Positions 110 to 2,190 of a DNA stretch of 23,789 nucleotides are shown here, in pieces (position 1 is the stretch's first letter; each line of letters starts with the position of its first letter). Location of the stretch: the NCBI GenBank assembly GCA_046758705.1, contig JBHIAT010000040.1, forward strand, positions 1-23,789. Reading direction: 5' to 3'. The position numbers and the translations under genes are program-made. This DNA is from Candidatus Bipolaricaulia bacterium. Its GTDB lineage: Bacteria > Bipolaricaulota > Bipolaricaulia > JBHIAT01. Below the pieces are notes generated by a model. The model made no database searches, was not told where the DNA came from, and was given only the letters and a program-made list of their open reading frames with translations.

Positions 110-598
110 TTGGGATTAATCGACATCATCGACCCGGTGAGTTGGACCGTGGTGCATTGGATTGATGTGGGAAAGACTAGCCAGGGACACCCACTGACCC
201 GTGAGGGCATCAGTTACTTCAATGGCCAGGTCTATCTTCTGCCCGAAGACGGCCCCAACTCGGAGGTGTTGATCTATCAACCGGCTCTCACCCCTGTACC
301 GCCTACAACAACACTTGCACCTCCAAAACCCATTGTGATAGACACAGACATGGCTGTTGATGACTGGGTGGCCATTCTTTACCTTTTGCAACGATCCGAC
401 GTAGCTGTAGAAGCGATTACTGTGACTGTGACTGGGGCGAAGAGGTGTTCTTGGACACCCTCAATGGCCGAGTTCCTTAGAAAGTTAGATGTCCTGTTGG
501 CCGAGGAACTGTCGATGGCTGGTGCCGGCGAAGCGACCCGTAAGCTGAGGAACGGAGGATGTAGCCGGTCGCTCTTACAGAAAGCCTTTTCGTTTTAG
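110..598 (+). pseudogene. Probable gene remnant: unknown domain + Pro/Thr linker + N-terminal ~38 aa of an inosine/uridine-preferring nucleoside hydrolase, truncated
   Basis: KPIVIDTDMAVDDWVAILYLLQRSDVAVEAITV (nt ~326-439) matches the IU-NH N-terminal DxDxxxDD motif. Similarity stops at ~440. The frame is open from nt 2, so the 5' end may lie outside the window. The 3' tail overlaps relE convergently. Confidence 0.5.
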
Positions 599-883
599 CT
601 CCTTGTAAAACTCGTCATCACCACGTTTCCCTATCCAATAGATGATAACCAGCTTCTTGTCATCATTGACTTCATAGTAGATCCGGTATTCCCCGCTATC
701 CACGCGATAGCCTTCGCCGATCGGTTTGCAATCTTGAGGACGGGGTTCGGACTGCAGGGAGAAGACCTTCAGGGTTATCTGCCTATAGACTTTTGCAGGG
801 TATCTCTGTGGGTTTCCAAGCTCTTTAATAACTCGATCATCTACCAAGAACCTATATGGTCCCCTGGCCTTCGCTTTCCTCAC
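575..883 (-). CDS. relE: Type II toxin, RelE/ParE family
   Basis: 102 aa basic protein with PRPQDCK..GYRVDSGEYRIYYEVND..LVIIYWIGKR. GTG start with GAGG upstream. Overlaps the 3' end of the antitoxin gene. Confidence 0.9.
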   Translation of the reverse strand: MRKAKARGPYRFLVDDRVIKELGNPQRYPAKVYRQITLKVFSLQSEPRPQDCKPIGEGYRVDSGEYRIYYEVNDDKKLVIIYWIGKRGDDEFYKELKRKGFL

Positions 884-1157
884 TCAGCTCTAACCTCTCT
901 CCATAAAGCCGCTCGTATTGATTGACAAGTTCTTCAAAAGGGACAAGACTCTTGGAGGACTCCTTCGCCGCTTTAAGCAGAGCAGCATCGCGTTCATCCT
1001 CAAACCTCTCCAACACGCGAAGGTCCTCCAGCGAGATGAGAGCAGCGACCGGCTTGTCGCGCCGCTCGATGATCACTCGCTCCTTGAGATAAATCACACG
1101 AGCGAGCAGATCTCCTATCTGATTCCTAAGTGCGGTCGCTCCGACTTTGACAGTCAT
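852..1157 (-). CDS. Type II antitoxin, Phd/YefM family
   Basis: N-terminus VGATALRNQIGDLLARV..ERVIIERRDKPVAALISLEDL is the Phd/YefM signature. Acidic C-terminus. SD AGGGGGAAGG upstream. Lies upstream of the toxin. Confidence 0.9.
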   Translation of the reverse strand: MTVKVGATALRNQIGDLLARVIYLKERVIIERRDKPVAALISLEDLRVLERFEDERDAALLKAAKESSKSLVPFEELVNQYERLYGERLELSEESEGQGTI

Positions 1158-1434: not shown

Positions 1435-1520
1435 CAGTTAAAAGGTTGGAAAGTTAAAAAGTTAGCAAGTTAAAAGACTTTAAAACTTTTCAACTTTTGG
1501 AACTTTAAACTTTTAAACTG
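1435..1520. repeat. AT-rich inverted array of 8-nt units (NNAAAGTT ... AACTTTNN), empty copy of the element flanking the four-helix-bundle gene
   Basis: CAGTT-AAAAGGTT-GGAAAGTT-AAAAAGTT-AGCAAGTT-AAAAGACTTT-AAAACTTT-TCAACTTT-TGGAACTT-TAAACTTT-TAAACTG. Ends are CAGTT/AACTG. Nt 1445-1490 match 1716-1761 at 45/46 positions. Confidence 0.9.
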
Positions 1521-1771: not shown

Positions 1772-2152
1772 GTGGCCAAGATAGGAAGGTTCGAGGAGAT
1801 CGAGGGATGGAAACTATCGAGAGAGTTGGTAAGAATGGTGTATAACCTGACTCAAGGAACTCCCTTTGCCCAAGATTATGGATTAAAGGATCAGATTCAA
1901 AGAGCGGCTGTATCGACCATGTCTAACATCGCTGAAGGGTTCGAGAGGAACTCTACGAAAGAGTTCATCCAATCCCTTTATGTCGCTCGCGGTTCTGTAG
2001 CAGAGGTCAGAAGTTTATTGTATGTGGCTTCCGATCTGGGATATATTGCACCTGAGGACTTTGCTGAGGTTTTTAACCAAGCGGAGGAAACGTCGAAAAC
2101 GATCTTTGGATTCATCAAATATTTATCGGCCAAAGACTTTAAAACTTTTTGA
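1772..2152 (+). CDS. Four helix bundle protein (23S rRNA intervening-sequence protein / S23-like, Avd-related fold)
   Basis: 126 aa with the family pattern RFEEIEGW..SRELV..VY..T....DYGLKDQIQRAAVSTMSNIAEGFER.STKEF...LYVARGSVAEVRSLLYVA.DLGYI. GTG start with no obvious SD. Confidence 0.92.
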   Translation: MAKIGRFEEIEGWKLSRELVRMVYNLTQGTPFAQDYGLKDQIQRAAVSTMSNIAEGFERNSTKEFIQSLYVARGSVAEVRSLLYVASDLGYIAPEDFAEVFNQAEETSKTIFGFIKYLSAKDFKTF

Positions 2153-2190
2153 CTTTTGAACTTTTGAACTTTTGAACTTTTAACTGTTTT
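2132..2190. repeat. Right repeat arm of the four-helix-bundle cassette (inverted 8-nt units)
   Basis: AAAGACTTTAAAACTTTT-TGA-(CTTTTGAA)x3-CTTTTAACTGTTTT. The terminal AACTGTTTT is the exact reverse complement of AAAACAGTT at 1702-1710. Confidence 0.9.

Follow-up and report, generated by a model that had tools for sequence, protein, structure and literature searches.

The window (the whole stretch of DNA analyzed here, 23,789 nt) carries on its forward strand the genes for tRNA-Ser(CGA) (1340 to 1426), tRNA-Arg(GCG) (1529 to 1604), tRNA-Ser(GGA) (1612 to 1702) and the large SRP RNA (2197 to 2462, with a terminal helix that probably spans 2193 to 2466). The spacer between tRNA-Ser(CGA) and tRNA-Arg(GCG) holds a gene-less foldback, called the solo below, and the spacer between tRNA-Ser(GGA) and the SRP RNA gene holds a related foldback with a gene inside it, called the cassette. 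Rfam matches in the window were confined to tRNA and SRP, and none fell on the solo; in 17 loci around other copies, tRNA was the sole match. The anticodon GCG of the tRNA-Arg is common to the relatives examined; bacterial tRNA-Arg commonly carries ACG. Divergent from the tRNA operon lies an antitoxin unit (575 to 1157, reverse strand), in which a Phd-family antitoxin gene is followed by a 102-aa ORF with no NCBIfam match that we take to be a RelE-type partner. This unit has a perfect TTGACA-17-TATAAT promoter at 1221 to 1193.

The core of the solo is 86 nt long (1435 to 1520). As the preliminary description had it, the core begins with CAGTT, ends with AACTG and lies just 3' of a tRNA-Ser CCA: it starts 8 nt past the CCA of tRNA-Ser(CGA) and ends 8 nt short of tRNA-Arg(GCG). 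The left arm (1435 to 1471, forward strand) consists of CAGTT and four 8-nt purine-rich units ending in GTT. It is followed by an 18-nt centre (1473 to 1490) and a right arm (1491 to 1520, forward strand) of 7 to 9-nt pyrimidine-rich units starting with AAC, with a terminal AACTG. Overall, the units are 7 to 9 nt long, of the AAAGTT type in the left arm and the AACTTT type in the right arm. The solo had been read as a left arm joined to a right arm with no gene. It is indeed a gene-less relative of the cassette, but the foldback extends beyond the 86-nt core and occupies the entire 102-nt spacer (1427 to 1528), starting directly past the CCA; the flanks 1427 to 1434 and 1521 to 1528 pair imperfectly, and 9 of the outer 13 nt of the spacer are paired. 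GC content is 26% in the solo versus 56% in the window. The predicted hairpin has a free energy of -20.6 kcal/mol (z -3.3) and none of 200 shuffles folded equally well; the repeats have several competing pairing registers, which makes the centroid weak. A scan found no promoter-like or terminator-like site in the solo or in the cassette arms. The 7-nt spacer between tRNA-Arg(GCG) and tRNA-Ser(GGA) (1605 to 1611) probably represents what is left of an element that collapsed. On one contig of a related strain (run X4, depth 6.8), 15 nt including CAGTT and AACTG are inserted at this place, and this minimal element, compared with the 7 nt here, suggests that elements also collapse over short time scales.

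The cassette (1702 to 2190) begins at the last base of the CCA of tRNA-Ser(GGA), which is also the first base of a 9-nt terminal inverted repeat. Its 5' part (1702 to 1767) had been described as a left arm (1706 to 1767). A left arm is present, but this part is in fact a short complete hairpin by itself, in which the left arm and the same centre are followed by a stub of a right arm. The 3' part (2132 to 2190, forward strand) comprises the centre and the right arm and pairs with 1702 to 1767; in the predicted fold of the whole cassette the arms pair over about 55 bp with the ORF looped out (z -3.2). The ORF (1772 to 2152, forward strand) encodes a four-helix-bundle protein of TIGR02436, the Avd-related S23p or 23S rRNA intervening-sequence protein family. 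It belongs to this family by score (117 bits, cut-off 24), is related to Xcc0516 (five-chain structure 2GSC, E 9e-20) and matches Avd weakly (NF033474, 20.5 bits against a cut-off of 80). In the related strain, 12 of the 15 ORF substitutions listed (8 further differences in the stretch lie outside this listing) are synonymous versus 22% expected, and the gene is under purifying selection. Copies of the 18-nt centre flank the ORF on both sides in direct orientation (1744 to 1761 and 2132 to 2149, one mismatch, 388 nt apart), and the last six codons read through the downstream copy. Exact gene loss between the two centre repeats would leave a 93-nt element of the same build as the 86-nt solo.

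The same arrangement recurs around homologous genes from many phyla. Inverted arrays of short units flank 72 of 80 homologs, compared with 30% (maximum 42%) in a control with mismatched pairs of flanks, and each homolog's flanking array uses its own unit sequence. A minority have extra arms, on one side (9 of 73) or on both sides (11 of 73) of the ORF, a crude count that is inflated by self-complementary units. Where the orientation could be called, the host neighbors of the homologs are mostly co-oriented with the gene (upstream 36 versus 4, downstream 34 versus 4). The solo is a gene-less member of this foldback family that brackets TIGR02436 four-helix-bundle genes. The same genome carries a second cassette (L002, G000 C23:3620-6895) with a broken four-helix-bundle gene and 9-nt units, about 1 kb from a third remnant with GAGTC-type units; a 5' fragment of a four-helix-bundle cassette lies at the start of that contig (C23:5-103).

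The preliminary description reported that 45 of 46 nt match between the solo (1445 to 1490) and the cassette (1716 to 1761) and that the solo centre is identical to 2132 to 2149. Both statements were confirmed, the latter over 18 of 18 nt. The simplest account of such a match would be one local duplication of a tRNA-Ser gene with its trailer. Both copies follow a tRNA-Ser, the last 28 nt of the two tRNAs are 89% alike, and solo and cassette share 33 nt exactly. A local duplication can explain the 45/46 identity but not the arm family, which is spread over 18 contigs, nine kinds of tRNA and protein-gene junctions; as an origin of the element it is extremely improbable, and the case that had been named as fatal to a mobile-element reading (no other solos and a single ancient tRNA-Ser duplication) is excluded by the same distribution. 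A search for further copies found many: the arm pattern matched 37 arms on 18 contigs, compared with 0 in the reversed genome and 0, 0 and 1 in local shuffles, and one further right arm, before tRNA-Lys(TTT), escaped the pattern.

The proposed preference for tRNA 3' spacers is strong. Left arms lie 3 to 8 nt past the CCA at 14 of 43 tRNA genes, and the arm-bearing ends belong to nine kinds of tRNA; right arms precede 10 of the 43. Among protein genes, 10 of 3,297 crude ORF ends carry a left arm, or up to 13 when mixed junctions are counted, giving an odds ratio of about 150 for tRNA ends versus ORF ends. This last test used 44 tRNA genes; of the 48 ARAGORN calls, the tmRNA and four doubtful calls within coding DNA were left out of the tRNA counts. 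The two kinds of junction also differ in the form of the element. Full hairpins occupy 10 of 11 spacers between RNA genes versus 1 of 12 junctions between coding sequences (p 1e-4; classes assigned by hand, with C50 and C110 being paralogs), and at the other 11 coding junctions a single arm remains. The copy on C148 was omitted from these classes because a contig end touches it. At protein genes the arms abut the coding sequence closely: in six cases the left arm begins 0 to 2 nt past the stop codon, on C79, C151 and C112 the right arm stops 2 to 3 nt ahead of the start codon, and the arm ends often supply TAA (left) or ATG (right). An ORF on C112 is presumably RNase III-like. Two solos with long loops (G000 C3:18587-18692 and C8:25720-25841) contain promoter-like hexamer pairs, read by eye, and look as if arms had joined both flanks of a host promoter. 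Searches with tblastn, blastn and nhmmer found no gene remnant in the AAAGTT-type solos of this genome.

Several comparisons point to copying between arms. Left arms resemble each other more within a contig than between contigs (0.66 versus 0.44, permutation p 0.003). The 45/46 match therefore does not prove transposition and is best read as local homogenization of two junctions of a tRNA-Ser with an arm, 271 nt from each other. For right arms the same-contig comparison gave p 0.17. Two left arms on C158 have 42 nt exactly in common, and a centre that is not made of units is common to solos on C116 and C158 (twice) and to the protein junction on C151 (16 to 24 nt exact). Right arms precede 5 of 5 tRNA-Arg and 2 of 2 tRNA-Glu genes, with 12 same-amino-acid pairs versus 2.1 expected (p 0.0002), a test confounded by tRNA operon order (Ser-Arg pairs). 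Left arms follow all four tRNA-Ser genes, and their clustering by amino acid over the whole set is borderline (8 versus 4.2, p 0.055); same-amino-acid left arms on different contigs are not more alike (0.56 versus 0.60). In another genome, a solo between tRNA-Asp and tRNA-Phe lies in a tandem duplicate of 142 nt (L194:1370-1511, G053), which is local amplification of a whole solo.

The genome belongs to Bipolaricaulota, and in the quick homolog tree the named homolog L098 groups with G016. The same spacers were compared in relatives, none of them nearer than the same class. Empty sites are present as anticipated. Of the 20 genomes that show the Ser(CGA)>Arg(GCG) pair, 8 have a spacer of 0 to 3 nt, 6 have a hairpin of related build but different units, and 6 have other inserts. 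The preliminary description had also looked to a target duplication, and here the result was negative: no direct repeat of at least 3 nt was found across the flanks of the solo (one of 1 to 2 nt may have occurred), and the empty sites themselves measure 0 to 3 nt. The Ser(GGA)>SRP spacer is 2 to 4 nt long in 14 genomes. Members of one family (f5) carry in this spacer an intact gene in five genomes (G016, G041, G046, G049 and G053), a broken gene in two (G004 and G024) and arms only in four (G008, G012, G032 and G036). In a second family (f4), the four-helix-bundle gene lies in the Ile(GAT)>Ala(TGC) spacer, where decayed copies occur too. The His>Arg(TCG) spacer is empty or holds any of three unit families in different genomes. 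When 184 genomes were scanned for a tRNA end followed by CRGTT, there were 14 matches in this genome, 7 to 11 in G016, G046, G053 and G155, and mostly 0 to 2 elsewhere. A metagenome scan for a tRNA-Ser end plus arm found none; a scan with a 22 to 23-mer of the arm found two loci, both single left arms past stop codons of unrelated genes with no tRNA. Loci of the f4 family (L324-L353 in G035, L043, L044 and L046) have yet another palindromic repeat family, which is GC-rich and lacks unit arrays; its copies lie in tRNA spacers and after tRNAs. The elements are dispersed, sit at gene boundaries, are enriched at tRNA ends and have been repeatedly gained and lost at the same spacers.

The f5 right arm contains a sigma-70-like promoter (TTGACY, 16 to 17 nt, TANACT) in all nine of the filled loci listed (L023, L026, L033, L034, L035, L037, L189, L221 and L254, in the spacer before the SRP RNA gene). 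It is correctly spaced for the SRP RNA, a possible case of domestication, and is missing from the arm in this genome. The hairpins might be domesticated parts of tRNA operons, processing helices or promoters, that are kept by selection whatever their origin. This promoter would fit such a role, as would G046, where hairpins occupy 12 of 18 tRNA-tRNA spacers (two unit families, 39 of 46 tRNAs examined), much the same set as in G004, and the helix cores retained among orthologous solos. Against domestication, the same spacers measure 0 to 4 nt in many relatives, unit families replace one another at a single site, and neither the solo nor the cassette arm of this genome has a promoter-like or terminator-like site. 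We consider domestication quite improbable as the general explanation.

The distribution of the gene bears on how the empty hairpins arose. A profile of 110 homologs was run on 256 distinct tRNA 3' ends; a gene or remnant lies at 13 of them, always in sense, and all 13 are Ser(GGA) or Ile(GAT) ends, whereas none of the other 39 armed tRNA ends has a gene trace. Recognition of the two gene-bearing sites was post hoc, and the sites in relatives are largely pattern-found; no p value is given for this contrast because the sites were found by pattern and the kin are not independent. Where gene decay is visible it leaves ragged remnants of 81 to 353 nt, whereas solos elsewhere are clean and mostly 70 to 100 nt long. 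Each solo could go back to a filled cassette that inserted separately at a tRNA end and then lost its gene precisely, much as a solo LTR arises, with no movement of the empty form itself. The 18-nt direct repeat around the ORF and the near-equality of the predicted 93-nt product and the solo suit this history, and so do the series at Ser(GGA)>SRP from intact through broken and arms-only to empty, the extra arms beside the ORF in the minority of homologs mentioned above (a crude count), and the grouping of tRNA-linked genes in one weakly supported part of the homolog tree, a quick version. It is made unlikely by the ragged products of decay, by the lack of gene traces at the 39 other ends, and by four sequencing runs in which the excised form was not seen. 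A candidate joint from 1761 to 2160 (runs X1-X3) was rejected as a case of gene loss; the contig that contains it derives from the paralogous C3 locus, shows 4 other letters and 9 gaps, and runs on into another tRNA-Arg. In the tree, a WOR-3 homolog directly behind a tRNA-Ser(GCT) (L107:1297-1900) is placed with the nine tRNA-linked Bipolaricaulota genes in that weakly supported group.

We favor the explanation that the empty hairpins derive from a filled cassette and then spread as empty forms, which is probable on the present comparisons. An empty hairpin would first arise through gene loss; at this locus a direct repeat brackets the ORF. It would then spread as such among stable-RNA junctions, partly by recombination or template switching, where the likeness of tRNA ends and of resident arms would aid recombination and unit slippage would reshuffle the arms. 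Spread in the empty state is the most likely course because Ser(GGA) and Ile(GAT) are the only tRNAs followed by gene remnants, because decay at these two sites is ragged and the other sites are clean, and because unlinked solos share centres and arm variants. Independent mobilization of the arms, as had been proposed, is accordingly the likeliest reading for the empty form, suggested by the gene-free clean sites and the shared centres. The spread most likely proceeds at least partly by homology-assisted copying between tRNA loci, and homology-assisted recombination would account for the local and isoacceptor patterns. Since the homology at a junction is often just CCA, jumps between unrelated tRNAs are hard to explain by host recombination alone; this leaves room for the four-helix-bundle protein, which may help the spread in trans. 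Whole hairpins would be tolerated in spacers that precursor processing removes in any case; inside mRNA one arm would usually be lost, probably since a long duplex there would lead to cleavage. By analogy, whole hairpins in RNA-RNA spacers fit removal with the spacer, as by RNase III on the Coxiella intervening sequence, and selection against cleavage would account for the missing arm in mRNA. Points against the favored explanation are the weak covariation in five orthologous solos, where 1 of 23 pairs changed on both sides, together with the borderline left-arm clustering and the confounding operon order noted above.

A bolder reading, which we hold to be doubtful, would make the Avd-like four-helix-bundle protein the active component of a hitherto undescribed class of mobile elements without transposase or target duplication. 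The protein might recognize its own foldback as RNA or single-stranded DNA and install filled or empty copies at RNA boundaries, a step that is equally speculative. Such boundaries might be tRNA CCA ends, stop/start junctions and, in one MAG, a CRISPR repeat, an extension that we put forward with the same reserve. If this were true, the insertions would be nearly harmless, since their ends would carry their own stop and start codons and they would leave with the spacer. Against it, the gene lies in sense with the tRNA at 13 of 13 sites, a misfit to simple tRNA-primed copying of a sense RNA, and no match to reverse transcriptase PF00078 (RVT_1) was found in any of five genomes, one of them a single contig 99% complete, which leaves an RNA-templated route without its enzyme. 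In the MAG concerned, a four-helix-bundle cassette (L165:796-1400) lies at the end of a CRISPR array and starts after nt 21 to 23 of the 29-nt repeat; a truncated repeat plus left arm recurs immediately after the cassette. Cas6 would be expected to cut 8 nt away from the end of the repeat, and the insertion point is presumably near that position.

The solo had been labeled MITE-like or REP-like, a label that does not hold. Movement of a classical MITE or REP/REPIN in trans by a DDE or Y1 (RAYT) transposase is very unlikely and largely refuted. Like a MITE, the solo has short terminal inverted repeats and no transposase of its own, is under about 200 bp, forms a stable hairpin and exists in many intergenic copies, and the genome has six Y1_Tnp matches. 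The target-site duplication of a MITE was not found, and the sole gene between such arms is the four-helix-bundle gene, not a cognate transposase (the transposase search covered Y1). The six Y1_Tnp matches all lie outside the 18 arm-bearing contigs, so that none is flanked by the repeats as a RAYT gene would be, and G035 has solos yet no Y1_Tnp match. In place of a 20 to 40 bp palindrome tagged with GTAG or CGTC there is an AT-rich element without such a tag, 86 to 102 nt long here and 70 to 100 nt in general. The published parts drawn on for bacterial MITEs (PMC3184786) and for REP/RAYT or TIR/TIRYT systems (PMC3733652) share with the present family one gene-bearing element, many empty palindromes derived from its ends, intergenic location and hairpin formation; the differences are that no transposase lies between the arms here and that the arms are slippage-prone unit arrays. 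The solo behaves as a non-autonomous derivative by REP/RAYT or MITE logic, yet belongs to neither group.

Closer relations are found among intervening sequences. In the ORF-bearing 23S rRNA intervening sequences of the S23p type (Coxiella burnetii, Leptospira), complementary termini enclose the gene in a long stem, and in Coxiella RNase III removes the sequence within the stem (PMC4990558, in part). The parts of that account used here agree with the cassette in the protein family, the enclosure by complementary termini, tandem heptamers in variable number upstream of the start codon, residence in a stable-RNA precursor and gene decay. The cassette has the four-helix-bundle ORF within complementary termini, and the solo has the termini without the ORF. 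The location differs, since S23p-type elements reside in 23S or 16S rRNA and the elements here lie between tRNA-Ser, tRNA-Arg and SRP RNA genes, and the family as a whole between tRNAs, SRP RNA and protein genes; both arms here are full tandem arrays, with dozens of gene-less copies per genome. The TAACTGA heptamers of Beggiatoaceae, Cyanobacteria and Bacteroidetes are intergenic, with no evident transfer mechanism in the portion of the source cited (PMC4679880). They resemble the present arms as short tandem units ending in AACTG a few nt before start codons, in essential operons; unlike them, the units here are 8-mers in mirror arms, and within the same portion the heptamers appear as direct repeats only, with neither a four-helix-bundle link nor a tRNA preference. 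Avd of the diversity-generating retroelements has a homologous fold (PF05635/2GSC versus Avd; PMC10053308, in part), but the ORF scores far below the Avd cut-off, and the lack of a PF00078 match in the five genomes sets this genome apart from a diversity-generating retroelement.

The literature, mostly main texts of open papers, yielded no inverted arrays around these genes outside rRNA and no tRNA-spacer solos; supplementary repeat lists (e.g., of PMC4679880) may bear on this. The tRNA-end preference, the contrast between full and half hairpins and that between gene-bearing and gene-free sites are apparently undescribed. The solo is part of a widespread element system, real and dispersed, that is apparently undescribed as well, and in several Bipolaricaulota lineages gene-less copies have accumulated immediately 3' of tRNA genes. 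Tandem heptamer or octamer arrays are among the commonest bacterial intergenic repeats, with no known function or origin according to the parts cited of 10.1101/309039 and PMC4679880, and the protein family TIGR02436, although very common, has no assigned function. At this locus filled and empty forms stand side by side, and relatives supply empty target sites and a decay series. It provides tests of protein-driven hairpin movement with a well-defined substrate and with a very small, equally well-defined target, the CCA terminus of a tRNA gene. If the doubtful protein-driven reading were true, rRNA intervening sequences and the intergenic heptamer or octamer arrays of many bacteria would have one origin.
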